A stretch of DNA of 64,000 nt from Anaerolineales bacterium (GTDB taxonomy: Bacteria; Chloroflexota; Anaerolineae; Anaerolineales; UBA4823). The position numbers and the translations under genes were made by a program. Positions 1,832 through 20,891 of the stretch are shown in pieces. The DNA lies in the NCBI GenBank assembly GCA_046259385.1, contig JBJYWI010000157.1, positions 3,540 to 67,539 on the forward strand, in the 5' to 3' direction. The notes beneath the pieces were generated by a model. It was not told where the DNA came from. It did not search any database and saw only the letters and a list, made by a program, of their open reading frames with translations. How positions within the stretch are numbered: the stretch's first letter is position 1; each line of letters opens with the position of its first letter.

Positions 1832-3991
1832 ATGAAACCTGATCAGATTGTTGAACTGCAAATAAGCGATATGGATTGTATGGAATGCACCCTTCATGTA
1901 CGCAAAGCATTAGAAAAACTGCAGGGGGTGAAATCTGCAGAGGTCTATCTCGGGGCTGAAAAAGCTGTTGTTCACCTTGATCCGGAATTTGTTCAAATTC
2001 AGGAGCTGAAACGGGCGGTTGAAAAAGCCGGATACAGAGTGTTGGATACTCGCGAGGATGTTTCTAAAGTAACCGGTGCAAGTAAATTCACCCGCAATAT
2101 CTGGATAATGCTGTTTTTTGTTTTTGGGTTGGTTCTATTTGCTGTAATTGGCGGAGAATGGCTTGGTTTTTTTGAGCAGATGAATGATTTTGTACCTTGG
2201 ACAATCTGGTTATTTGTTATTTTTCTTGTTGGTTATCCTATTTATAAGAATGTAATTCAGGCTGCGCTCCATCGCCAGATTATTGCGCACACATTAATGT
2301 TTGTGGGGGTGATCGCTGCGGCAATTGCCGGTGAATGGATCACTGCTTTGCTGGTAACAATCTTTATGCGAGTTGGGGATTACGTTGAAGGATTTACCAC
2401 CCAAAAAACACGCGCTTCCATCAAGAGTCTCACCTCATTGGCACCGCAAAACGCGAATGTAGAAAGAGACGGGACTGAAATATCCATATCGATCGAAGAA
2501 GTAGATATTGGTGATACTGTGATACTTCGTCCTGGTGAAAAAGTGCCTGTCGATGGTGAGGTATTGAGTGGGTATGCGATTATTGACCAATCAGCAATTA
2601 CGGGTGAACCCCAACCTTTTGAAGCGGGTGTCGGTACTTCAGTTTACGCCGCTTCGCTGGTGCAGTCAGGGAGTCTTAAAGTTCGTGCTGAAAAGGTGGG
2701 GAGTAATACTACCTTCGGAAAAGTGATATCCCTGGTAGAGCAAACCGAATCTAAAAAGGCGAATATTCAGCGGGTTGCAGATCGTTTCTCAGCTTATTTT
2801 TTACCACTTGTTCTCACGATTGCAGTCATTGCGTATTTTATCAGTCAGGATCATATGGCAGCGGTTTCAGTACTGGTTGTCGCCTGTTCCTGCGCGTTTG
2901 CGCTTGCTACTCCAATTGCCATGCTGGCTTCCATCGGTGCCGGGGCGAAACGTGGGTTATTGATCAAGGGAGGAAAATACCTGGAGATCCTGGATCAGGC
3001 AAAAGTAATGCTGATCGATAAAACAGGAACGCTTACATTTGGAAGACCTGAGATCATTGACGTTGAAGTGATTGGATCAGATATGCGGATAGGAAAAACA
3101 GTTTATCTATCGCAGGCGGAGTACGAAGAGGAGGCACTGCGACTTGCAGCGTCTGCGGAGCGATATTCATCTCACCCGTTTGCGAAGGCATTTATAAAAA
3201 TTGCCCGGGACAAAAACCTGGTGTTGTCTGAACCAGAAAAAAGTGAATATGAACCGGGGCTTGGATTAAAAGCGGTCGTGGATGGTTTCCAGGTTGAGGT
3301 TGGAAATCCGCGCATGTTTTTAAAGCGGAAAGGGCATATAATTTTTCCCGAAAAACACAGTATGAAGGATAGAGGAAGAACCATTTTATACATTGGGGTT
3401 GATAGGAAGCCGATTGCTGCAGTCATTCTGGATGATATTATGCGAGACGAAGTTCCTGCTGCGATTGACAGCATATTTAACCAGGGATTCGAACATGTAT
3501 CAATCCTGACCGGCGACCGGGATGAAACCGCCCGGAATCTGGCAAGGCAGATTGAATTAAAACTGGTGAATAAACGAAGAATTGAATACAAGGCTGAACT
3601 GCTTCCCCAGGATAAAATTGAAATTGTTAGGGAGTATCAGAATAAGGGCTATGTGGTGGTTATGGTTGGTGATGGAATCAATGATGCCCCTGCGCTTGCG
3701 GGTTCGGATGTGGGCATCGCAATGGGAGCTGCAGGAAGCGACATTGCCATAGAATCAGCTGATATTGCCCTGCTGCGTGATGATTGGTCGCTCGTGCCAG
3801 ATGTTATCCGGGTAAGCAGCCGGACAATGCGCGTTGTGCGAACCAATATTTTTTTTACAGGTTTTTACAATTTGATTGGTCTTTCGCTGGCTGCATTGGG
3901 GATCCTTCCGCCGGTGCTGGCAGCCGCGGCTCAGTCTCTGCCAGATCTGGGAATCCTGGTGAATTCATCCCGACTTCTAAGACAAAAATAG
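1832..3991 (+). CDS. Heavy-metal translocating P1B-type ATPase with N-terminal HMA domain and CSC transmembrane motif
   Basis: It has an HMA domain with a CxxC motif (DCMECT) and the motifs DKTGTLT, SSHPFAKA and GDGINDAPAL. The TM motif is VVACSCAFALATP. The ATG at 1832 (MKPDQIVELQ) is preferred over the TTG at 1808. Confidence 0.9.
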   Translation: MKPDQIVELQISDMDCMECTLHVRKALEKLQGVKSAEVYLGAEKAVVHLDPEFVQIQELKRAVEKAGYRVLDTREDVSKVTGASKFTRNIWIMLFFVFGLVLFAVIGGEWLGFFEQMNDFVPWTIWLFVIFLVGYPIYKNVIQAALHRQIIAHTLMFVGVIAAAIAGEWITALLVTIFMRVGDYVEGFTTQKTRASIKSLTSLAPQNANVERDGTEISISIEEVDIGDTVILRPGEKVPVDGEVLSGYAIIDQSAITGEPQPFEAGVGTSVYAASLVQSGSLKVRAEKVGSNTTFGKVISLVEQTESKKANIQRVADRFSAYFLPLVLTIAVIAYFISQDHMAAVSVLVVACSCAFALATPIAMLASIGAGAKRGLLIKGGKYLEILDQAKVMLIDKTGTLTFGRPEIIDVEVIGSDMRIGKTVYLSQAEYEEEALRLAASAERYSSHPFAKAFIKIARDKNLVLSEPEKSEYEPGLGLKAVVDGFQVEVGNPRMFLKRKGHIIFPEKHSMKDRGRTILYIGVDRKPIAAVILDDIMRDEVPAAIDSIFNQGFEHVSILTGDRDETARNLARQIELKLVNKRRIEYKAELLPQDKIEIVREYQNKGYVVVMVGDGINDAPALAGSDVGIAMGAAGSDIAIESADIALLRDDWSLVPDVIRVSSRTMRVVRTNIFFTGFYNLIGLSLAALGILPPVLAAAAQSLPDLGILVNSSRLLRQK

Positions 3992-4030
3992 AAATAGAGC
4001 TGCCAGTTCTATGGTTGGGGTATTCGCTGG

Positions 4031-5572
4031 TTATCTATAAATTAGTGGAAATATAAGCGTGTCGAAGAGCGTTTCATATGCATCGATTCGACCCCATCCA
4101 TAGGTATTGTTAGGGACCTGTCCCGCGGGAATACCTCCACAGGTTTCCGTGGTTATGCGCGGCAGTGCATTCCTTTCAATAATATTTTCAATTTGATCAA
4201 CCTGCCCAATTAAATCCGGTCGAGCTGATAGTAATAGGGCTACCAAACCGGTAACATGGGGGGCAGCCATGCTGGTGCCGCTGGCAGTGCCGTAAGATCC
4301 GCCTTTAATACTGGAGCGAACGTTATAACCCGGGGCGCTAACATTTGGTTTTAATAGGTTGGTGTAATCCGAGGGTCCGCGGCTGCTGAATCCGGTGATG
4401 ATATCGCCGCTGTCGGTCGCACCAACGCTGAAAGAGGCTTCATAGATCGCTGGTGGGTGATTGACAGAACCACAGCCTGAGGAGCCAAAATTACCGGTTG
4501 AGACCACCACTACAATACCAGCCGCGCGGGTATTATTCACGACCGGCATGAGAGAATCCCAATCACAGAGTTCTTCCGGCGGGCAGTACCAGGAATTGTT
4601 GACCACATGAGGGGCGAGGTCAGAATTGCCGTTCTCTCCATTCAAATCAGTTGGTTCCAGAAACCATTCAAAACACTCAATATAAGATGCGAGCGTTCCG
4701 TTTCCCTGGTCCATGTTGCGGCAGCCGATCCATTTTGCGCCAGGCGCCATCCCGATTTGATTACTCCCCCCGTCATCCCCGATCATCGTGCCCATGGTAT
4801 GTGTGCCGTGACCAAAGGAATAATCGTCGCAGGGCTCGTTGGAATCTGGTCCGCAAACCCCTCCGCCCGAGTGAATTGAGTCATGCCAGTTGTAGTTGTG
4901 GTCGGCTGAAGAGCCGTTCCAGCCGCGGTATTTGTTGATCAAAGCTGGATGGTCCCAGTCATAGCCGGTGTCCTGCCCGCCGATAACCACGCCCTGGCCT
5001 GTGTAACCCGCCTCCCAGACCTTCGGCGCGTTTACCTGGTCGATATTCCACTCAACTGCGCCTGGCAGCAGTCTTTGATCGCCAGGTTTGGATTCGGGAA
5101 AGGGTTCAGGAAGTTGAATTGAAATTTCATTGTTTGCGAAAATCCGGGCAACCTCATTCCGCTCTGCTATCTGCGCCATCTCTTCATGAGTGCTTCGCAC
5201 CCAGATCATGTTTGCAATCCAGAACGCTCGGTGCTCGATGTTGTTCTTGGTGAGATATTCCAGAATCGGGGCCTGGTTGCTCTCAGCAGTCGCTTTCAAT
5301 TCTTTTACGACGTAGTGACCCTTTTCCAGCTTGGTCGGTAAAAATTTAGTCTTTTCAATATTGGCTTGCTGCGTCAGGAAAACCAGATATTCAACCTGTT
5401 CTATTGTATTCTGTTCAAGCAAGTCAGGATCCATTTTTGTCCGCCATTTTAGTTTCGATGCTTGGATAGATGACTGAGGTCCCAGAGCGATTGCAAACAG
5501 CAAGAAGATCGAAAGCGCAAGAAAGTATGTCCGCGTCATTGTTTTCTGAGCAGGGATTTTATTTATTTGCAT
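4031..5572 (-). CDS. Secreted subtilisin-like serine protease (peptidase S8) with N-terminal propeptide
   Basis: The catalytic triad contexts are QDTGYDWDHPAL, GHGTHTMGT and GTSMAAPHVTG. A signal-peptide-like N-terminus (MTRTYFLALSIFLLFAIALGPQSSIQA) follows the ATG at 5572; an alternative ATG lies at 5539. The upstream 150 codons of ORF 4031..6025 overlap murJ and are not counted as coding. Confidence 0.88.
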   Translation of the reverse strand: MQINKIPAQKTMTRTYFLALSIFLLFAIALGPQSSIQASKLKWRTKMDPDLLEQNTIEQVEYLVFLTQQANIEKTKFLPTKLEKGHYVVKELKATAESNQAPILEYLTKNNIEHRAFWIANMIWVRSTHEEMAQIAERNEVARIFANNEISIQLPEPFPESKPGDQRLLPGAVEWNIDQVNAPKVWEAGYTGQGVVIGGQDTGYDWDHPALINKYRGWNGSSADHNYNWHDSIHSGGGVCGPDSNEPCDDYSFGHGTHTMGTMIGDDGGSNQIGMAPGAKWIGCRNMDQGNGTLASYIECFEWFLEPTDLNGENGNSDLAPHVVNNSWYCPPEELCDWDSLMPVVNNTRAAGIVVVVSTGNFGSSGCGSVNHPPAIYEASFSVGATDSGDIITGFSSRGPSDYTNLLKPNVSAPGYNVRSSIKGGSYGTASGTSMAAPHVTGLVALLLSARPDLIGQVDQIENIIERNALPRITTETCGGIPAGQVPNNTYGWGRIDAYETLFDTLIFPLIYR

Positions 5573-7286: not shown

Positions 7287-7335
7287 CGAAACAGGGTCGA
7301 ATCGGATTTACCAATAATTTTCTGGGAGGGATTTG

Positions 7336-10197
7336 ATGAGTAGATATATCCTGATTTTGATATGTGTGGGTTTGATTTTTGTTTTTCCAATGTATCAGGA
7401 CAGCCAGGCTGCGACTGCCCCTATTTATGTTGATCATACCGCGACTGGATTGAACAACGGCACTTCCTGGACAGATGCATACACCGATTTGCAGACCGCT
7501 CTTGGAGCTGCTTCCTCCACCGACTGGATCTGGGTAGCGGAGGGAACGTATATGCCGGGGACAGCCCGTACAGCAACCTTCCAAATTATAGACGGAGTTG
7601 AGGTATACGGCGGATTTCCAAACGGCGGAGGTGACGGAACCTTTGCAGCGCGTGATTGGAAAACTCACCCGACAATATTTAATGGAAGCGTATACAATAA
7701 TTACCATGTGGTGACAACAAACGGTGTTGGTGACAGCACCATTCTGGATGGTTTTGTCATCAAGGGGGGGGACGCAGATGGTTCAGGAGCATCTGACTCG
7801 AGCTATGGGGGTGGGATGTATAATGCCTCTGCCAGTCCCACTATCCGCCATACGATTTTTGAGGACAACTATGCAATTTACGGGGGAGGCATGGCAAACT
7901 ATATCGACAGCAATCCATTGCTGGTTGATCTGTACTTCATTCAGAATGAAGTCCTGCTTGATGGAGGCGGGCTTTACAACCTTACCAGAAGCAGCCCGAC
8001 GATTGTCAATACCGTGTTTAGAGGAAATACAGCCGATGAGGGCGGGGGTATTCATAACTATTACCTGAGCTCACCCCATCTGATTAATGTGGTTTTAAGC
8101 GGTAATCAGAGCACGTCCAACGGCGGAGGAATCTTCAACCTTGATAAATGCGACCTCACCCTGGATAACGTGGTCATGACTGCGAATGAAGCCGGCAGCT
8201 GGGGTGGAGCGATGTATAACCATGTTGACAGTGATCCCCAATTTAGTAATAGTATTATCTACGGGAATACCGCCAGCTCATATCCCCAGATCAGCTATAG
8301 CGGAGTGATGACGATCAGTCATAGTATCCTTCAGGGAGGTTGTCCTGCTTCAGGCGCGACATGCATTAATTTATTGAGTTCGGATCCCCGATTTGTGCGC
8401 GCTGCGGATATCGGTTCTGATGGCGATTGGGGTACAGATGACGATGATTATGGAGACCAGCGTCTTGAATTTACTTCTCCTGCCATCGATGCGGGAGATA
8501 ACCATCTCGTTCCCAGTGATAATTTTGATCTGGATGAGGATACAATCACCAGCGAATTAGTTCCCTTTGATCTCCAGGACAATACGCGTTTTACAGACGC
8601 CCCAACGGTACCTGATACAGGCAGTGGAACTGCCCCGATCATTGATATGGGTGCTTATGAAACCCCTCCGGAGGTGGTCTATGTGGATTTATCTGCAACC
8701 GGAGGCGCGGATAACGGGACGAGCTGGGGAAACGCCTTTCTGGACCTTCAGGACGGGATGCATTGGGCAAAAAGCGGGCCAGTCCAGGTTTGGGTGGCTG
8801 AAGGTACATACCATCCGGGAACAAGGCGGTCTGATGCATTTAAGGCGGTTAATGATGTCGAGGTTTACGGAGGCTTTCCATCCGGCGGTAGCACATATGG
8901 AGGCAGAGATTGGCTGGAGAATGAAACCATTTTAAGCGGAGATATTGGGGTTGAATCGCATCATCTGGATAATAGCTACCATGTTGTAGATGTGAGCGGA
9001 GTGCGTAGTACAGCAGTTCTAGATGGATTTGTGATCAAACATGGTTACGCAAATGGTGCAGATCCAAGATTCTATAAGGGCGGTGGGATTTATAACAACC
9101 GCGGAGCGCCGACTCTGAAGAATTTAAAAATTACCAGCAATCAAGCTGTCCACGGGGGTGGTTTGTACAATTACTACGGCAGTCCTACGTTGGAATCGAT
9201 TTCTTTTATTTCAAACACTGCATCAAATGGAGGAGGCATCGACAGTGATGTCAGTGCAATTGATTATCAAGCCGCCAGATTTATTGGGAATCAGGCGTCA
9301 GGCAAAGGCGGCGGTATTAACAACGATGCGACAAAACTCGCTATCCTGGGAGCGGTTTTTCAGGGAAATACTGCCAGTATCGGCGGAGGCATTTCAAGTG
9401 AAGATACCAGCGAGTTGGATCTGGTTGAGGTCTTATTTTTGAGAAACCATGCTGGTTCAAATGGCGGTGGTATCAGAAATATTATGGGTACAGAAGTCGA
9501 TCTGATCAATGTCAGGTTTTTCGGAAATACCGCGGGCGGAGACGGAGGTGGGATTTTCAATGATGACAGCGATTCCACGATCGTCAATTCTTTGTTCAGC
9601 GGAAATGAGGCGGCTGTTTCAGGAGGGGGAATTTATAATGTAAATACAAGCGCCCTGGAAATATTCAATTCCACTTTCAGCGGGAACAATTCAAATGGCT
9701 CCTTTGGTGGAGGGTTGGGGATCGGTTCCAGCACTGTCACAATAAATAATTCAATTTTCTGGGGAAATACAGGTGGACAGATTACCCCAAATATGAGCAC
9801 AGTTGATATCAGCTTTGCTAATCTGCAGTTTGGCTGCCCGCCTGCGCCGACGTCCTGTGACAATTTATTGCTACTCGATCCAAAATTCAGGCGAAGTCCT
9901 GATCCCGGGATTGATGGCAACTGGGGAACAACGGATGACGACTATGGCGATTTGAAATTGGTTATGGATTCGGCTGCAATTGATGCGGGCGACAATAACA
10001 CGGTGCCTGCGGATGCCTATGACCTGGATGGAGATGTCAATACTTCCGAAAAACTACCTATTGATCTGGACGGTCGGGCGCGATTTATGGATATCCCAAG
10101 CGTGGTAGACAGCGGTAGTGGAACCCCTCCTGTTGTTGATATGGGCGCTTATGAAAACCAGTTCCTTATCTTTAATCCTTTGATTTATAGAGAGTAG
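7336..10197 (+). CDS. Secreted right-handed parallel beta-helix repeat protein (Pmp-like GGG[IM][YF]N repeats), two tandem modules
   Basis: It has a signal peptide (ILILICVGLIFVFPMYQDSQA) and many repeats of the types GGGIYN, GGGLYN and GNTA. Each module ends with DxGDN...DMGAYE. GGGAGGG lies 5 nt upstream of the ATG at 7336. Confidence 0.8.
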   Translation: MSRYILILICVGLIFVFPMYQDSQAATAPIYVDHTATGLNNGTSWTDAYTDLQTALGAASSTDWIWVAEGTYMPGTARTATFQIIDGVEVYGGFPNGGGDGTFAARDWKTHPTIFNGSVYNNYHVVTTNGVGDSTILDGFVIKGGDADGSGASDSSYGGGMYNASASPTIRHTIFEDNYAIYGGGMANYIDSNPLLVDLYFIQNEVLLDGGGLYNLTRSSPTIVNTVFRGNTADEGGGIHNYYLSSPHLINVVLSGNQSTSNGGGIFNLDKCDLTLDNVVMTANEAGSWGGAMYNHVDSDPQFSNSIIYGNTASSYPQISYSGVMTISHSILQGGCPASGATCINLLSSDPRFVRAADIGSDGDWGTDDDDYGDQRLEFTSPAIDAGDNHLVPSDNFDLDEDTITSELVPFDLQDNTRFTDAPTVPDTGSGTAPIIDMGAYETPPEVVYVDLSATGGADNGTSWGNAFLDLQDGMHWAKSGPVQVWVAEGTYHPGTRRSDAFKAVNDVEVYGGFPSGGSTYGGRDWLENETILSGDIGVESHHLDNSYHVVDVSGVRSTAVLDGFVIKHGYANGADPRFYKGGGIYNNRGAPTLKNLKITSNQAVHGGGLYNYYGSPTLESISFISNTASNGGGIDSDVSAIDYQAARFIGNQASGKGGGINNDATKLAILGAVFQGNTASIGGGISSEDTSELDLVEVLFLRNHAGSNGGGIRNIMGTEVDLINVRFFGNTAGGDGGGIFNDDSDSTIVNSLFSGNEAAVSGGGIYNVNTSALEIFNSTFSGNNSNGSFGGGLGIGSSTVTINNSIFWGNTGGQITPNMSTVDISFANLQFGCPPAPTSCDNLLLLDPKFRRSPDPGIDGNWGTTDDDYGDLKLVMDSAAIDAGDNNTVPADAYDLDGDVNTSEKLPIDLDGRARFMDIPSVVDSGSGTPPVVDMGAYENQFLIFNPLIYRE

Positions 10198-14837: not shown

Positions 14838-15854
14838 ATGGAATATAAAGACTATTATAAAATTCTCGGGGTGAAGAAAAGTGCGAGTGCTGATGAGATA
14901 AAAAAAGCTTATCGCAAACTGGCTCGCAAGTATCACCCTGATGTAAATCCCGGAGACAAGGCTGCGGAAGAAAAATTCAAGGAGATAAACGAGTCGTACG
15001 AAGTCTTGTCTGATGAGAAAAAGCGGCAAAAGTACGATCAATTTGGGTCACAATGGCAGCAGTACACCCGCGCGGGTGGTAGACCGGAGGATTTTGATTG
15101 GTCAGCATGGTCTTCTCAGCCTGGAGGCGGAACTTATACCCGCAGGGTATCCCCTGAAGAATTTGAACAGATGTTTGGCGGGGGTTTCGGTGGATTCTCA
15201 GACTTTTTTGAGATGCTGTTTGGCGGGATGGGTGGAGCAGGTCCCACAGGCGCGCGTGGTTTTAGGACCGGCGGAGCAGGCGCCCAAGCATCCGGTTTTG
15301 AGGACATTTTCGGAGGTAATTACAGCGCCAGGGCTAGCCGTGGTCGAGACAGCGAACATAAAATTCAGATATCGCTTGAAGAAGCGTTTTCCGGTTCAAC
15401 CCGCATTCTTCAGTGGGAAGGCGGCAGGAAAATAGAGGCGAAGATCCCACCGGGCGTGAAAACCGGCTCGCGTATAAGACTGCGTGGCCAAGGTGAAAAA
15501 GGGGCAAGCGGTGGAGACGCCGGCGACCTTTTTTTACGGGTCGAAGTTCTCCCCCATAAGGAATTCCAGCGCGAGGGAAACAATCTGCGCGTGAATGTCC
15601 CAGTTGACCTGTATGCAATGCTCCTGGGCGGCGAGGTGGAGGTGCACTCACTGGACAGGACTGTTAAACTCACCATTCCACCCGAAACAGAAAATGGAAA
15701 GGTATTCAGGTTGAGCGGGCTCGGGATGCCCAAACTCAATAGCCCAAAAAACCGGGGAAACTTACTGGCAAAAGTTGAAGTCCAGTTACCGCAGAACCTG
15801 AATGAACAAGAAAAAAAGTTATTCAAGCAGCTGAAAGAGTTAAGGCGCGGTTAA
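14838..15854 (+). CDS. J-domain co-chaperone, CbpA-type (DnaJ without zinc finger)
   Basis: The J-domain reads DYYKILGV...[18 protein letters not shown]. It is followed by a Gly/Phe-rich region and DnaJ C-terminal domains. There are no CxxCxGxG repeats. Confidence 0.85.
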
Positions 15855-15909
15855 TCCGGTTGTCAATCTATAGCAAGTTGAGGGTCTAATAACTCGCCGC
15901 CGCACCGGC

Positions 15910-18249
15910 TCACCCTTTGGATTGTGACCATTTCGGGAGTGTACTGTCCTGCGTGGCAGCCGCGAAGGTTTGAGGCGCGTATAATCCCGCTCCGCCAGAA
16001 GTGAACAGGCTTGAAGCGACGGCCTGGGTGTAACCATTCAGCCGTTCTTCAAGTTTTGTTCTGCTGACACCGAACGGTTCCAGGACGGATACAGACGCAC
16101 GCAAAAGCAGTTCCCTGTAGTAGGCAAAATCGAGGGTGGAAGGGTCTGGAGGCATGGGCAGGTCCCAGGCATGAACTCCTGGCTCGCCGCGCGTGTATAG
16201 AAAGCGCACTTTCTGACCGGCACGCAGCGTCTTTCCGACTGCCTTTAGCTGGGCCGCAGCACGCGCGGGAGGAGAGGGCACCCGGTATTCATCAAGCTCA
16301 CGGCTCAGTTTCTGGCTAACAAGCAGTTCACTGACCGGCACCGCACCAGCGCGCAAGAGTCTCAGCTTCCTGCGCAGCAGCTCGTAGACGCGCTCCAGGC
16401 TGGCGCCATCTACTGCGCGCTCAGCCGAGGCAAGCATCCGCAGGATTTTAAGCTGCGTATTTGTGATAAAGGGAGGGGAGTCGCGCCGGCGGGCTTCAAT
16501 CCCGCGTACCTTAATCGAGCCATCTTGGAAAACCCCGAAATAGCGGTTAGCGACCGGTACGCGTGCATCCAGGCGGGAGGGCAGGAACGCCACCCAGCGG
16601 TAGATCCCATCCAGCGCGATCGGGAGCCCGGTCTGCTCAGCGATTGTCTCCAGCAGGGGCTGCATGTCTTCAACGGTCCGGACGCCGGGTTTTTTAACCC
16701 ACATTCCATCCACATACATGTGAAGCACACTGAAGCCAAGATCCTCCGCCGCCTCTTTTGCTCTCAGCAGCGCCTCCCGGCTATATGCCGTAACCGCTTC
16801 ATGGGCTTCAATGCGCCCGAACCGGGCGTTCTTGTACCCAAGATAGCCGAAACAGGTCACCAGCAGCCATTTCTGGGCTGAAGCGCGGGCTTCATATGAC
16901 TTGCAGCGCGGGTTCCAGCGCGGCGTGGAGGCCAATCGGTTTTTGAAAGCCAGCCGTTTTCCGAGCAGTGGGGCAAGCGTGCGCGGTACCAGACCGGGTT
17001 CATCCCCCATGCCGGGTGTTTCGATACGCTCAAGCTTTCCGGGTTTTGGCTTTCGGGCGCCGGCCGTCTCGGGAGATATGTTGAAATGCACCATGATGCC
17101 GGGGTACATGGAGATAAAATCGATCCCGGCGACATCGTGGTGCAGCCCGGTGATGGGCTGGTAGACAAGCCCTCCCTGGTCGGCGGCAAACATCTCCAGC
17201 GCAGTTTTCGGGCGCTCTGCCTGCTGTTTGTGCCAGGGTACCAGCACACCCATGCGCAGAGCGGTGAGTATCTGCATTGATGAGATCGCTGTGCCGGGTG
17301 AGACGCGTGCTGCGGTCTGCAGCGGCAGGGATGAGACGCGCGCCACCTCCAGTGAACCCTCCAGTTCGTAATCGTCCCAGAGCATTACATTACGGCCGTC
17401 AAGATGCAAGCGGCCAAACAGGTGCACCTGCTGGCCGCGGTAGATCACCTGACCATAAGAAAAGTAAGTATGCTCAGGTCGGTGCGCAACACCGCAGCCC
17501 GGATCGCGGTTGAGCGGCAGGGGGATTCCGCACCGCCGAGAACATTCAAGCAGATGCGGCAGGATCCAGGTGTCTCCCCAGGAGGTAAGAATAAGGTCGG
17601 GGTCGTGGCGCGTCAGTATAGCGCTCAGGTTGACAAGCAGCGGGCGCTCAGGTTTCAACGCGAGACGGTAGGCGTAACGCTCAAAGTTAACCAGCAAAGA
17701 ACCGGGCTGCAGCCGGGCCGGGTCGCTGTCAGGCCTCATGCGCAGGATCCGCAGCGGCGGCGCGGGCGCATCAAGTTCCCAGGGGGAATCAAGTGTTTTG
17801 ATGTCCTTGATCCAATTTTCACTGTCGGTCACCACCCGGCAGCGGGCCAGCGGAAAGGTGTTATGCACAGCCGCGTGGCGCAGGGCAAGCTGAATGTCAG
17901 AATCGTAGTAGGTCAGGTCCGGGAAGTCCCGCGCGACGCTGTGGAACAGGGGGGGCAGTTCTGCCGGCTGGTTGACCTGGATGGAGAGCAGGGATAACGG
18001 CTCCCTGTGAAAAAGCTCCCGCCGCCTGGCGCGCGAGAGTTCCAACTTGAGGGGCATATTTTGCAGGTGCCGCCAAAGCAGGCGCAGGCGGGGAGTTGGA
18101 CCATCCGCATAGAAGGTCACCGGGAAGTGCTGGCGCAGGCGGTAACGTCCCCCATCCTCTCCCAGAAACCAGATCACAATGCCGTCGTGCTGGTGGGCGT
18201 AAATATCCAGGAACCAGCCAGTGCGTTCGATAGCAGGCGCGTCAGCCAT
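15910..18249 (-). CDS. B-family DNA polymerase, exonuclease motifs degenerate, non-canonical motif C
   Basis: Motif A is GGLVYQPITGLHHDVAGIDFISMYPGIM. The motif-B-like segment is QKWLLVTCFGYLGY. Motif C reads VLHMYVDGMWV. The KxY region is VANRYFGVFQDGSIKVRGIEARRRD. The start is taken at the ATG at 18249 (MADAPAIERTGWFLDIY), 7 nt after the stop of the upstream ORF. Confidence 0.8.
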   Translation of the reverse strand: MADAPAIERTGWFLDIYAHQHDGIVIWFLGEDGGRYRLRQHFPVTFYADGPTPRLRLLWRHLQNMPLKLELSRARRRELFHREPLSLLSIQVNQPAELPPLFHSVARDFPDLTYYDSDIQLALRHAAVHNTFPLARCRVVTDSENWIKDIKTLDSPWELDAPAPPLRILRMRPDSDPARLQPGSLLVNFERYAYRLALKPERPLLVNLSAILTRHDPDLILTSWGDTWILPHLLECSRRCGIPLPLNRDPGCGVAHRPEHTYFSYGQVIYRGQQVHLFGRLHLDGRNVMLWDDYELEGSLEVARVSSLPLQTAARVSPGTAISSMQILTALRMGVLVPWHKQQAERPKTALEMFAADQGGLVYQPITGLHHDVAGIDFISMYPGIMVHFNISPETAGARKPKPGKLERIETPGMGDEPGLVPRTLAPLLGKRLAFKNRLASTPRWNPRCKSYEARASAQKWLLVTCFGYLGYKNARFGRIEAHEAVTAYSREALLRAKEAAEDLGFSVLHMYVDGMWVKKPGVRTVEDMQPLLETIAEQTGLPIALDGIYRWVAFLPSRLDARVPVANRYFGVFQDGSIKVRGIEARRRDSPPFITNTQLKILRMLASAERAVDGASLERVYELLRRKLRLLRAGAVPVSELLVSQKLSRELDEYRVPSPPARAAAQLKAVGKTLRAGQKVRFLYTRGEPGVHAWDLPMPPDPSTLDFAYYRELLLRASVSVLEPFGVSRTKLEERLNGYTQAVASSLFTSGGAGLYAPQTFAAATQDSTLPKWSQSKG

Positions 18250-18256
18250 ATCTGCA

Positions 18257-18532
18257 TCAGCTGCCCTTGTTTCCGCGCTCAGCCAGTAAGTCCTCAAGCA
18301 TACTGCGCAGCTGGAGCACCTGCTTGTGTTCTTCAATCAGCATGGCGAGCAGGAAGCTTTCGAACGGGAGCGAATGGGCTGCATATGCCGCGGCGGAAAG
18401 GTGCTGGCGGGCTGAAGCGAACAGGTCGTCCAGAACCAGCTGGTCGCTGCGCCTCAGTGCCCGCCGGAAGCGGTTAAATGATTCCTGCTCCTGCAGGAAA
18501 GCCATGGTGATTGAAGGCAGCGTGCGTCCCAT
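18257..18532 (-). CDS. Hypothetical 91-aa helical protein, middle gene of the PolB cassette
   Basis: It fills the gap between the two flanking genes almost exactly (8 nt and 7 nt spacers) on the same strand. Its GC content matches the island. No family was recognised. Confidence 0.5.
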   Translation of the reverse strand: MGRTLPSITMAFLQEQESFNRFRRALRRSDQLVLDDLFASARQHLSAAAYAAHSLPFESFLLAMLIEEHKQVLQLRSMLEDLLAERGNKGS

Positions 18533-18540
18533 GAGAGCTC

Positions 18541-19200
18541 CTAAGGCAGCAGGGGCATCTGGCCTGAATCCTGCGGCTGGTGGAACACAAACTGGTCAGC
18601 CGCGTCCTGGATAATCTCAAGGATGCCGGTTGGGTCCGTGCGGGGTGGGCGCGGCGGGCGCACGCTGACAGCGACGGTCGCATATCGGCTCAAACGGCGC
18701 AGGTGACCGGCGCATTTGTGCGCCAGCCGGCGGCGCTCCTCCAGGTTTACGCTTTCATCATAAAATGTGTCCAGCAGGTCAATGACAAGCGTTGGAGCTT
18801 TTTGGCAGGGCGAGTTCTCAAGCAGTGAGAGCACTTGGTGGCAGGTAAAGGCGCGCGCCACGTGGATGCGGCTCAGCGCCCGGGTCTGGTCCAGCGTGCC
18901 GGACCGGCGCAGCTCGCGCGCCACTGTGTAGGCGTTGAAGCGGTTGCCTCCGTCGAGGACGCGCAGCCGGCCGCGTTGGGCCATCCGGGCAGCAAGCGTG
19001 AGCATGTACTGACTCACTGCGTGCGGGCCAGCGATCACCAGCAGTTCCCTTTTACCGGGGCGCGGGGGCGTGAATTCGAGCTCAGCAGCCTGCCTGGGGG
19101 TGAGCGTAAAGGAAGTGTCCATGCGCCCAGAATAACGCATGTGGGACGCGCGCGCAATTCCCCAATGTGTGAGGGCTGGGGTCAGAAGCGGGTTAGTCAA
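18541..19200 (-). CDS. RecA/KaiC-fold protein with degenerate Walker A (ImuA-like by architecture)
   Basis: The motif order matches a RecA-type core. LLVIAGPHAVSQYMLTLAA sits where the P-loop should be, but without GK[ST]. RVLDGGNRFNAY and IHVARAFTCHQVLSLLE follow. TLVIDLLDTFY is Walker-B-like. Confidence 0.55.
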   Translation of the reverse strand: MTNPLLTPALTHWGIARASHMRYSGRMDTSFTLTPRQAAELEFTPPRPGKRELLVIAGPHAVSQYMLTLAARMAQRGRLRVLDGGNRFNAYTVARELRRSGTLDQTRALSRIHVARAFTCHQVLSLLENSPCQKAPTLVIDLLDTFYDESVNLEERRRLAHKCAGHLRRLSRYATVAVSVRPPRPPRTDPTGILEIIQDAADQFVFHQPQDSGQMPLLP

Positions 19201-19397
19201 TCAGGCGTCCCATGGGTGGGGGAGTGGGTAACGGGAGGACCAACTGTGGGCGGCAGATTTTTTTAAGTTTTTTGCCGGTGACCTCAAAAACCCCTGTTGT
19301 TTATTCGCAATGCATCTTACTGCTCTTCGCAATTATGTTCCCGGTAGTCCGAGGGCTCTGAACAAAGCAACTGAAACCTGCTGAAGAGAAAATTGTA

Positions 19398-20891
19398 TTA
19401 ATCTAGGTCCTTGCGAATGTACAACCTGTACCCCCGGTTTTTGTGTACCAGATTGTAGTTTTGATTTAAGTATTCTTCCAGGTTATCGAACTCAAAAAAC
19501 ACCAGCAGAACCTGTTCTGGTTTGTATTTCTTTACAGTATCGAGGATCTCCTCCTCAGTTAGACTCCCTGTATTTAGGCGCTTTTCGGAGAATGTCGCCA
19601 GGTTTGGCGGGACGGGTTTGCGTATGAGAAATGCATATAGGGGCATATCCGTGACAACCCAATTTGTCCTGGATGCGTATTCGCGCATGATAAGGTAAAC
19701 ATTCAATTTATGCTGGGGAGCTTTTACCTCAAAGCCGCTCAAGCGGGGTCTTTTATATATTTCTCTTTTGAATTGTGGGTAGGAATTGAAGGTCAGGAAC
19801 AGCAAACCAATTAAGGCAAGGATGCTTAAACCAGCTTGTATCCCCAGGAAATTTTTTGATTGGGGGAGATTCGCTAACCATATGACCCCTTCCCCAGCTG
19901 CGATTGATCCTAACATAACGACGGGTATACTGACAAGCAATTGCTGGTGATACCAGACCGGGGAATAAGAGTTGAGCAGCAGATATGCTGTAAGAGCCCA
20001 GAATACCAGGTAAAGCGTCAGCCAGCGTTTGTTGAAAATTGTAAAAAGAACGCCCAATAATCCCAAAATTCCAAAAGGTAAAAACCCGCGCAGATGGTAA
20101 TTAATTGTGTTGCGAACGATCTTGAAGGTTTCAACCGAATCTGCTGTCAGATGGGGTTGGATGATATCCATTAAATTTCCAGGTCCAACCAATATCATTG
20201 AAAGTACGATTGCAAATCCTCCAAAACTCAATCCCCAGATGATCCCTGGTCTGAACCATGTGGTTGAAATACCCTGGTTTTTAGACCTGAATATCTGGTC
20301 TGTTGTTATTCCAATAAGGAAAATTGGTGCAAGAAATCCTGTGAATAACTTGATGAGCACAGATATGCCAAGCGAGAGTCCGGAAAGAACAAGCCAGTAG
20401 TCCCGCCGGTAAATATGCCAGAGAAAAAGAAATAATAAGGATAATGAAGCCATCGCTAGGGCGGGAAGCCCTATCATAATAGAGACGCTCAATTGCATGT
20501 AATATGGGGTGAACAACAGCAGTGGAAGTAACAGTATGGTGTGAATGCTGCCCCAGGTGAACTGGATTATTTGGGCTAAAGACCAGACCATTAAAACCGA
20601 AAACAGCAGAACTAGGATTCTCCCGGGTGTTACACTGATTCCTAAAGTTCGTATAACTCCTGCCAGCAGATAGGTGAAAAGTGGGGGTTGGTCGCTTGAT
20701 ATCTGCTCATAGAGGGGGTACCCGTTTGAGAGCAGCGTGCTCCTGATAAGGTTAAATCCCTCATCCACATCAAATTGGAGTTTTTCCCGGAATGGGAAAA
20801 ATAAGAACACAAATCCAAAAAATACCAGCGCAACCAGAACCGGAATTACAATGTTGAGGAGTTTTTCCCGTGGAAATTTCAGGGGTGACAT
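19398..20891 (-). CDS. GT-C membrane glycosyltransferase (ArnT/PMT-like, GT39/GT83 type)
   Basis: It is a polytopic protein. The first loop has the motif FDVDEGFNLIRSTLLSNGYPLY...DQPPLFTYLL, typical of ArnT/PMT_2 enzymes. Confidence 0.6.
   Translation of the reverse strand: MSPLKFPREKLLNIVIPVLVALVFFGFVFLFFPFREKLQFDVDEGFNLIRSTLLSNGYPLYEQISSDQPPLFTYLLAGVIRTLGISVTPGRILVLLFSVLMVWSLAQIIQFTWGSIHTILLLPLLLFTPYYMQLSVSIMIGLPALAMASLSLLFLFLWHIYRRDYWLVLSGLSLGISVLIKLFTGFLAPIFLIGITTDQIFRSKNQGISTTWFRPGIIWGLSFGGFAIVLSMILVGPGNLMDIIQPHLTADSVETFKIVRNTINYHLRGFLPFGILGLLGVLFTIFNKRWLTLYLVFWALTAYLLLNSYSPVWYHQQLLVSIPVVMLGSIAAGEGVIWLANLPQSKNFLGIQAGLSILALIGLLFLTFNSYPQFKREIYKRPRLSGFEVKAPQHKLNVYLIMREYASRTNWVVTDMPLYAFLIRKPVPPNLATFSEKRLNTGSLTEEEILDTVKKYKPEQVLLVFFEFDNLEEYLNQNYNLVHKNRGYRLYIRKDLD

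Follow-up and report, generated by a model that had tools for sequence, protein, structure and literature searches.

Can a DNA polymerase whose signature motifs look partly broken still be a working enzyme, and if so, what might a bacterium use it for? The question arises from a gene at positions 15910–18249 on the reverse strand of a 64,000-nucleotide stretch of DNA from an Anaerolineales bacterium (Chloroflexota; contig JBJYWI010000157.1), the whole of which we refer to as the window. Judged by its sequence, the polymerase belongs to the bacterial representatives of the PolB2 (G2) group, B-family enzymes that came into bacteria from archaea. We suggest that the gene belongs to a PolB2 mutasome operon with the gene order iRadA–PPB2–PolB2 on an Anaerolineae-type (Chloroflexota) chromosome and that its product is an exonuclease-free extender. 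We would give this explanation as a whole a probability of roughly 0.8.

15910–18249, reverse strand: polB2, third gene of the operon, coding for a B-family DNA polymerase of the PolB2 group with 779 amino acids (open reading frame with ATG start; Pfam, NCBIfam, BLASTP and Foldseek matches)

The mechanically determined open reading frame starts with a TTG at 18336 and runs to 15910 (808 amino acids). This TTG is situated 29 codons before an ATG at 18249 and entails an 80-nucleotide overlap with the end of the preceding gene, PPB2. The observations are consistent with a start at the ATG, 7 nucleotides past the PPB2 stop codon, and the homologues agree with this position. The resulting product of 779 amino acids is 100% identical to a database protein (P0001) and fits the length of its relatives (750–800 amino acids). 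The Pfam domain DNA_pol_B is found with an E value of 8.8e-25, the best match among the PDB sequences is PolB from Pyrobaculum calidifontis (2.6e-45), and over 2900 homologues exist, the top 120 of which are 59–100% identical, mostly at about 60% or above. Where source names are given for the homologues, these are Chloroflexota and Anaerolineales. Thus, on the strength of the Pfam and PDB matches and the number of homologues, the open reading frame is a real gene and has not arisen by chance.

Among the NCBIfam models NF004416 (1.3e-111, 374 bits) and NF004418 (1.2e-94, 318 bits) rank best, followed by PolB1/B3-type models at 4.8e-39 or weaker and Pol II models at 5e-15 to 9e-5. The PolB2 protein of Haladaptatus scores 1040 bits with NF004418 against a cut-off of 692 bits, and therefore NF004418 is a model of haloarchaeal PolB2. 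In a BLASTP comparison the window protein is 31% identical to the Haladaptatus PolB2 over 731 columns, which is the full length (E value 1e-95). An AlphaFold2 model of the protein has a mean predicted local distance difference test score (pLDDT) of 76 and a predicted template modelling score of 0.72. It served for the overall fold and for loop disorder, not for active-site geometry. According to the model the protein retains an N-terminal domain and an exonuclease-like scaffold. With this model Foldseek finds full-length structures of archaeal PolB and of Escherichia coli Pol II (best E value 4e-31, template modelling score about 0.6).

The initial annotation had regarded the protein as an unusual bacterial Pol II-like enzyme. 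Instead it falls into the separate PolB2 (G2) group, which has already been described in bacteria (PMC2527604; PMC4104785; PMC11791011; PMC12926913). One could still think of a repair polymerase of the E. coli Pol II type whose proofreading domain has recently decayed in this lineage, as the host is a bacterium, E. coli Pol II is a bacterial B-family enzyme as well and both proteins share the overall fold (template modelling score 0.61). However, this possibility is excluded by the similarity ranking: the Pol II models are the weakest NCBIfam matches and the Pol II structure 1q8i is found at 1.5e-4, as compared to 1e-111 and 2.6e-45 for the best NCBIfam model and the best PDB match, so that the sequence similarity to Pol II is marginal. 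E. coli Pol II retains a functional exonuclease of the DEDDy type, its motifs A, B and C are canonical and it is not accompanied by iRadA or PPB2, whereas the window protein has neither intact ExoI–III motifs nor the sequences KxxxNSxYG and YGDTDS that mark a Pol II-type enzyme. In addition, the motif changes described below are invariant across hundreds of relatives and hence not recent. We consider a decayed Pol II hardly credible.

Does the polymerase centre still contain what is needed for catalysis? For the placement of the motifs we used HMMER alignments to solved structures (Pyrobaculum PolB, 5mdn) together with a 40-sequence profile, and all conservation counts refer to an alignment of 40 relatives that are 59–87% identical to the window protein.

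17092–17121, reverse strand: motif A, DFISMYPGIM, with the metal-binding D377 and the steric-gate Y382 (HMMER alignment to DFSSMYPNIM of 5mdn; both invariant, 40/40)

16942–16959, reverse strand: finger-helix sequence KRLAFK with K431, R432 and K436, expected triphosphate contacts (alignment with the archaeal PolB finger helix; invariant, 40/40)

16837–16872, reverse strand: motif B, KWLLVTCFGYLG (aligned to KVMANAMYGYLG; K460 kept, Asn replaced by V464, Ser by T465 and Tyr by F467)

16696–16728, reverse strand: motif C, VLHMYVDGMWV (HMMER alignment to VIYGDTDSLFV of Pyrobaculum PolB)

16534–16551, reverse strand: equivalent of the KxY motif, ANRYFG (aligned to KKRYAG of 5mdn; Lys replaced by N568, Y570 kept)

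The residues D377, Y382, K431, R432, K436, K460 and D514 are present in all 40 relatives. The contacts of the KRLAFK sequence with the triphosphate would follow from the role of this helix in the canonical PolB enzymes. In motif C the Tyr-Gly pair has become His-Met and the first aspartate of the DTD triplet is Y512, while the second aspartate is retained as D514; the sequence Y512-V-D514-G is again found in 40/40 relatives. Thus, the protein displays the trait of the PolB2 group, namely a substituted first aspartate of motif C together with a conserved distal aspartate and a conserved motif A aspartate. In the motif B region HMMER pairs KWLLVTCFGYLGY with KVMANAMYGYLGW, and K460, V464, T465, F467 and G468 do not vary among the relatives. 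The same holds for N568, R569 and Y570 of the KxY region. Because the substituted positions V464, T465, F467 and N568 are likewise invariant, the altered motifs represent a fixed, selected state and not decay.

These alignments bear out much of what had been read from the letters before. Motif A with its metal-binding aspartate stands at 17092–17121 as had been noted, and the alignment to structures confirms that the asparagine and the tyrosine of motif B are replaced. It had also been recognized correctly that only the second aspartate of motif C is kept, but the coordinates assigned to this motif (16699–16716) fit its core YVDGMW, not the whole sequence VLHMYVDGMWV. Likewise the two sequences taken as the KxY region, ANRYFG and KVRGIEARRRD (16480–16512, reverse strand), are indeed there, but the lysine of the KxY motif itself is an asparagine in 40/40 relatives.

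Canonical B-family polymerases sense the nascent and the terminal base pairs via the asparagine and the tyrosine of motif B and via the lysine of the KxY motif, as seen in the structures of RB69 and archaeal PolB enzymes. The exchange of Asn to Val and of Tyr to Phe in motif B and of Lys to Asn in the KxY motif would remove these fidelity-sensing contacts, which would fit a tolerance of mismatched termini.

When Rogozin et al. described an "inactivated" archaeal PolB with a few bacterial homologues in 2008 (PMC2527604), such proteins were read as pseudo-polymerases without catalytic activity, whose role in replication would be purely structural or regulatory. The authors proposed inactivation on grounds that also apply here, since the tyrosine and the first aspartate of motif C are replaced and all exonuclease motifs are disrupted; the confidence of the AlphaFold2 model is also low near motif A. 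On the contrary, the metal- and triphosphate-binding residues are all invariant in relatives that are just 59–87% identical, and the palm has both catalytic aspartates, D377 and D514, the absence of which had been named in the initial annotation as the mark of an inactive enzyme. Moreover, the Dpo2 proteins of Sulfolobus islandicus and Sulfolobus solfataricus carry a motif C substitution of the same type and are still robust polymerases (PMC8764526). We therefore regard a dead polymerase as improbable and suggest that PolB2 keeps a working polymerase centre which would consist of the motif A aspartate, the second motif C aspartate, the steric-gate tyrosine and the lysine and arginine residues of the finger helix.

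The situation is different in the exonuclease domain.

17722–17754, reverse strand: ExoI-equivalent strand, LRILRMRPDSD, with R172-P-D174 at the DxE position (profile pairs PPLRILxLEPD with PPLRVLAFDIE)

17548–17583, reverse strand: ExoII equivalent, SWGDTWILPHLL (hhalign to YNGDSFDFPYL of Pfu Pol; catalytic Asp replaced by I229)

17343–17344, reverse strand: site of a 52-residue deletion between V302 and A303, by which the helix region of ExoIII (YxxxD) is gone (hhalign to Pfu Pol 202–425)

When the 40-sequence profile is aligned to the Pyrobaculum enzyme, PPLRILxLEPD comes to lie over PPLRVLAFDIE. At the first of the three ExoI positions the family (n=40) has Glu in 29, Arg in 4, Thr in 2 and Asp in 2 sequences, the second position is Pro, and the third is Asp in 31, Asn in 6 and Glu in 3; most relatives thus read E-P-D where the window protein reads R-P-D. 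An alternative placement of ExoI at the sequence KDIK, which came from a single-sequence HMMER alignment, was discarded, as its aspartate is not conserved in the family and the profile gives the pairing of PPLRIL with PPLRVL instead. For ExoII and ExoIII the reference was Pfu Pol residues 202–425, identical to PDB 3a2f_A, which hhalign aligns with a probability of 97.6%. The ExoII residues N210, F214 and D215 of Pfu Pol correspond to W224, W228 and I229 of the window protein, and the position of D215 is a leucine in 38 of the 40 relatives. The ExoIII segment stays unaligned in the HMMER profile alignment.

Three of the four positions of the exonuclease carboxylates are thus substituted or deleted, and the sole acidic remnant is D174 at the position of the ExoI glutamate. 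According to these alignments the active site of the proofreading exonuclease is abolished in the window protein. The earlier assignment of ExoI to LRILRMRPDSD, lacking a DxE motif, is backed by the profile, the departure of ExoII from NxxxFD is upheld by the alignment to Pfu Pol, and carboxylates at shifted positions, which had been considered as a possible objection, are not seen in the alignments of ExoI, ExoII and ExoIII.

The initial annotation had compared the protein to Pol zeta, that is, to a polymerase-competent but proofreading-dead B-family enzyme. Homology speaks for this comparison, namely the invariant catalytic set, the loss of the exonuclease and the activity of Dpo2. The support is by homology to archaeal Dpo2, an active exonuclease-free extender. 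The likeness to Pol zeta (Rev3) is functional only: both are B-family enzymes with an inactivated exonuclease domain, and Pol zeta serves to extend primer ends at mismatches and lesions. The sequences are not specifically related, as Pol delta structures match the window protein at 2e-4 to 3e-4 as compared to about 1e-45 for archaeal PolB. In addition, Pol zeta retains the canonical DTD motif, and its partners are Rev7 and Pol31/32 instead of iRadA and PPB2.

What distinguishes the locus further is the company of the polymerase. While the motifs described in the initial annotation are real, two partner genes directly upstream had been missed.

18541–19122, reverse strand: iRadA, first gene of the operon, coding for a homologue of the RadA/Rad51 core of 193 amino acids without ATPase site (profile match to RadA, hhalign)

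18257–18532, reverse strand: PPB2, second gene of the operon, coding for a putatively helical partner protein of 91 amino acids that starts with MGRTLPSIT (sequence, relatives and haloarchaeal counterpart)

The genes iRadA, PPB2 and polB2 are adjacent on the same strand with gaps of only 8 and 7 nucleotides. With polB2, the two partner genes define the PolB2 system. We searched for the partner genes with tblastn in 80 related loci, all from Anaerolineae or from Chloroflexota metagenome-assembled genomes. Of these, 72 have PPB2 upstream of the polymerase and 67 have iRadA there. Eight loci (L003, L005, L006, L008, L010, L028, L060 and L066) show neither gene within the up to 6 kilobases examined upstream (about 560 nucleotides in L066); in L005, a complete chromosome (CP070764.1), a divergent open reading frame of 806 amino acids lies directly upstream of PolB2.

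PPB2 has no match in a scan of Pfam and NCBIfam. Its N-terminus is of the MGRT type in 69 of the 72 related loci, and the protein is 35% identical, MGRT N-terminus included, to a protein of 86 amino acids at the equivalent position of the Haladaptatus operon. The iRadA protein on its own gives sub-threshold matches to RadA in Pfam and NCBIfam. A profile built from 20 relatives matches the ATPase core of Pyrococcus furiosus RadA with an E value of 6e-6, and hhalign aligns it with the haloarchaeal iRadA of 224 amino acids at a probability of 95%. Three further features bear on how the proteins may interact.

19006–19032, reverse strand: segment AGPHAVSQY of iRadA, equivalent to Walker A, with no GK[ST] (sequence; place inferred, upstream of the aligned RadA core)

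18544–18561, reverse strand: QMPLLP at the C-terminus of iRadA, candidate beta-clamp-binding peptide (ends of the relatives; PMC11791011)

17446–17478, reverse strand: insertion of 11 residues in PolB2, PEHTYFSYGQV (258–268), upstream of the invariant D284 (absent from Pfu Pol, hhalign)

At the Walker A position the iRadA family has the consensus LLxAPHAAxxxML and thus no P-loop lysine, and with 193 amino acids the protein is too short to have the N-terminal domain of RadA. By its sequence, iRadA is a RadA core in which the Walker A residues are missing, as is the N-terminal helical domain. It ends with GQMPLLP, and most of its relatives end with EP[LM]RLF, a peptide of the beta-clamp type which resembles QLxLF-type motifs. 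In the insertion of PolB2 the residues F263, Y265 and G266 are invariant, and residues 260–268 have a pLDDT below 50 in the AlphaFold2 model of the monomer. From the PolB2–iRadA model of Timinskas et al. (PMC11791011) this insertion is probably the loop that binds iRadA. The residue following D284 is Arg in 23 of 40 relatives and Gly followed by Arg in the window protein; the region may correspond to the D(K/R) motif, which is 253-DK-254 in S. islandicus.

This three-gene set is known from archaea. Makarova et al. (2014) found PolB2, inactivated RadA and arCOG07300 to be linked, in several bacteria too, sometimes together with lexA (PMC4104785). Timinskas et al. (2025) reported that bacterial operons show one order only, iRadA–PPB2–PolB2, that PPB2 has a conserved MGRT arm and that iRadA has lost its ATPase site and its N-terminal domain (PMC11791011). 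The same study located clamp motifs mainly at the C-termini of iRadA, found lexA to be enriched near bacterial PolB2 operons and described in silico a 1:1:3 complex in which iRadA is bound by a PolB2 loop that mimics the oligomerisation motif of RadA, a beta-alpha element located ahead of a conserved D(K/R) motif in that loop (PMC11791011). In a survey of bacterial polymerases from 2026, three bacterial PolB groups are given with an inactivated exonuclease, and G2/PolB2 is among them (PMC12926913). Chloroflexota are unmentioned in the published accounts of PolB2 that we examined, though PolB2 is very abundant there. The bacterial PolB2 operon is thus a system already described in the literature, and its assignment here is correct but ordinary.

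The archaeal system, comprising PolB2/Dpo2, iRadA and PPB2 (arCOG07300), of which the S. islandicus Dpo2 has been characterized, consists of the same three genes as the window operon. Both have lost the first and kept the second aspartate of motif C, both have lost the exonuclease, and both have the MGRT arm and a RadA homologue without ATPase site. In Haladaptatus (locus L081) Cdc6 is followed by a gene for 224 amino acids, a gene for 86 amino acids and a "type B DNA-directed DNA polymerase" (2977–5073) with the motif C sequence VVHGIVDSLWV. The window and the haloarchaeal PolB2 differ in length (779 and 698 amino acids) at about 31% identity, and the core of motif C is YVD in the window, whereas S. 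islandicus has IID and haloarchaea have IVD. The clamp of the host is the beta clamp instead of PCNA, and an orc1/cdc6 neighbour is absent from the window. The bacterial operons of Makarova et al. and Timinskas et al., for example, LFML04_0990–0993 of Leptospirillum ferriphilum, have the same gene order and a clamp-type motif at the C-terminus of iRadA, where the window protein has its candidate peptide; unlike in these operons, a LexA box is absent from the window locus, and lexA was not found among the ten neighbouring genes scanned. A protein search in a plasmid collection matched solely haloarchaeal replicons; as no bacterial plasmid was among these matches, they do not support a plasmid-borne spread among bacteria.

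There are also parallels to the E. coli Pol V mutasome (UmuD'2C–RecA–ATP) and to ImuA–ImuB–DnaE2, which are likewise mutagenic multi-subunit systems with a subunit of the RecA family and which share with relatives of the window PolB2 the SOS control and the tethering to the clamp (PMC11791011). The catalytic subunits differ, as UmuC belongs to the Y-family, DnaE2 to the C-family and PolB2 to the B-family. In addition, the RecA-family partner in the PolB2 operon is a dedicated inactive paralogue and not the RecA of the cell.

The biochemistry of the archaeal enzyme gives a hint how the operon might work. Feng et al. characterized S. islandicus Dpo2 as a robust polymerase that works distributively and in which they detected no exonuclease. 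The enzyme inserts only weakly opposite lesions, but it efficiently extends mismatched and lesion-opposed termini (PMC8764526). By analogy to Sulfolobus Dpo2 the window PolB2 would most likely extend mismatched or lesion-opposed primer ends in damage tolerance, and it would do so without proofreading. We expect the polymerase to act in a complex with one iRadA and a trimer of PPB2, in which the MGRT arm of PPB2 would be inserted between PolB2 and iRadA, and the C-terminal peptide of iRadA would tether this complex to the beta clamp.

How the operon may be expressed is indicated by the region upstream of iRadA, the mechanical open reading frame of which reaches a TTG at 19200.

19120–19160, reverse strand: candidate promoter with leaderless start, composed of GAATTGCGC (−35-like), 17 nucleotides, TATTCT (−10-like), 6 nucleotides and ATG (layout common to the relatives)

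Of 67 loci, 24 show the layout GA(A)TTGnnn, 16–18 nucleotides, TAnnnT, 6 nucleotides and ATG, the window among them, and it is absent from all 67 shuffled controls. In 31 of 67 related loci (e.g. L021–L023, L029, L056 and L062) a GAAC-N4-GTTC box of the SOS type, TAGAACAWATGTTCT, abuts a TATAAT sequence, and the ATG follows 5–8 nucleotides on. Both layouts suggest, as far as the sequences go, that the operon mRNA is leaderless and that iRadA starts at the ATG at 19122 rather than at the TTG at 19200. A strict sigma-70 scan of positions 15700–19500 failed to find a promoter, and the number of terminators in this region does not exceed chance; hence the promoter is proposed here on the basis of the layout shared with the relatives.

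Several observations count against the explanation that we favour. The window protein stays under the curated cut-offs of both best-ranking NCBIfam models, with 374 as compared to 516 bits for NF004416 and 318 as compared to 692 bits for NF004418. The AlphaFold2 model is of low confidence (pLDDT below 50) at residues 341–414 and 468–487, motif A included. The peptide QMPLLP differs both from the QLxLF-type consensus and from RLF, with which most of the relatives end. In the literature searched we found no bacterial PolB2 that has been characterized biochemically. Finally, no GAAC-N4-GTTC box with up to one mismatch exists at positions 19000–19420, nor upstream of the operons in its nearest relatives, L001 and L002, and because a LexA box is missing upstream an induction by damage is unsupported at the window locus.

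The last point needs closer inspection. Matches to GAAC-N4-GTTC across the window are not above chance, none of them is upstream of the operon, and lexA was not found among the ten neighbouring genes that were scanned. A site with two mismatches at 19340, GAACATAATTGC, was not considered meaningful. It seems that the lineage of the window uses a control other than LexA.

The absence of a LexA box would also suit a complex that works in replication restart, in origin-independent initiation or in the regulation of replication, as Makarova et al. (2014) proposed for archaea. The archaeal operons are linked to orc1/cdc6 (PMC4104785), which is also seen in the Haladaptatus locus, and stalled forks could be the target of a RadA partner that is inactive. 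Nevertheless, an SOS box accompanies the promoter in many of the bacterial relatives, lexA is enriched near the bacterial operons (PMC11791011), and both the genetics and the biochemistry of Sulfolobus favour translesion synthesis. A function in restart or regulation is therefore unlikely in our view, and we prefer the extender in damage tolerance.

The operon stands out from its surroundings by its base composition. It forms a GC island with GC contents of 0.60 and 0.555 as compared to about 0.46 around it, and the GC content at third codon positions (GC3) of the operon genes amounts to 0.68–0.74, whereas all 36 other long open reading frames of the window have 0.41–0.57. One might conclude from these values that the GC-rich block of 3.3 kilobases was inserted recently and that the polymerase is the replicase or cargo of a mobile element or a gene of a defence island. 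However, the flanks are of the housekeeping type: the neighbours code for an aromatic amino acid lyase (histidine ammonia-lyase-type), an EamA transporter, a DnaJ-type chaperone, a PMT_2 glycosyltransferase and subunits of pyruvate:ferredoxin oxidoreductase, and no integrase, tRNA or Cas1 adjoins the operon. The flanks are also syntenic in L001 and partly in L007, whose PolB2 is 61% identical, and the GC3 excess persists in these loci. In fact the excess is found in all 64 related loci tested and is therefore not specific to a recent event. PolB2 has a GC3 that is on average 0.15 above the mean of the flanks and above every flanking open reading frame in 57 of the 64 loci, and it scales with the GC3 of the host (r = 0.81, slope 0.67). 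In view of the syntenic flanks and the family-wide GC3 offset, we do not favour explaining the GC island by a recent insertion. PADLOC gives no match to a defence system; its sole match is a "homing endonuclease" model (PDLC03707) which covers residues 466–732, in the C-terminal part of the polymerase domain, and a role in defence was rejected. We consider a mobile or defensive element very improbable.

As to what maintains the composition of the operon, we can only offer a tentative and rather doubtful idea, namely that the persistent GC3 signature of about 0.15 comes from a gene-specific process and that LexA control has been exchanged for another regulator acting on a leaderless promoter. 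Such a process could be, for example, selection for rare GC-ending codons that limit a mutagenic polymerase, or recurrent conversion or replacement from GC-rich donors.

Elsewhere in the window, at 7333–10197 on the forward strand, an open reading frame of 954 amino acids contains repeats of the Chlamydia polymorphic membrane protein type (Chlam_PMP, Pfam E value 6.6e-15). It probably codes for a large surface or autotransporter-like protein that is unrelated to the PolB2 operon.

To return to the question raised at the beginning, a polymerase that looks broken may in fact be specialized. PolB2 retains what is minimally required for catalysis, and proofreading and several fidelity checks have been given up. 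Among bacteria it moves as a finished mutagenic module, together with its two partner proteins of archaeal origin. The three genes of the window operon can now be named, while the public records of close relatives are named only generically, for example, "DNA polymerase domain-containing protein" or "DNA polymerase II". That the window protein does not reach the cut-off of either PolB2-type NCBIfam model may point to the reason for these names, and it seems that bacterial PolB2, iRadA and PPB2 are without curated naming models. The PolB2 family is very common in Chloroflexota (Anaerolineae), and a cultivable host from this group or a recombinant complex would be a reasonable first bacterial test system.

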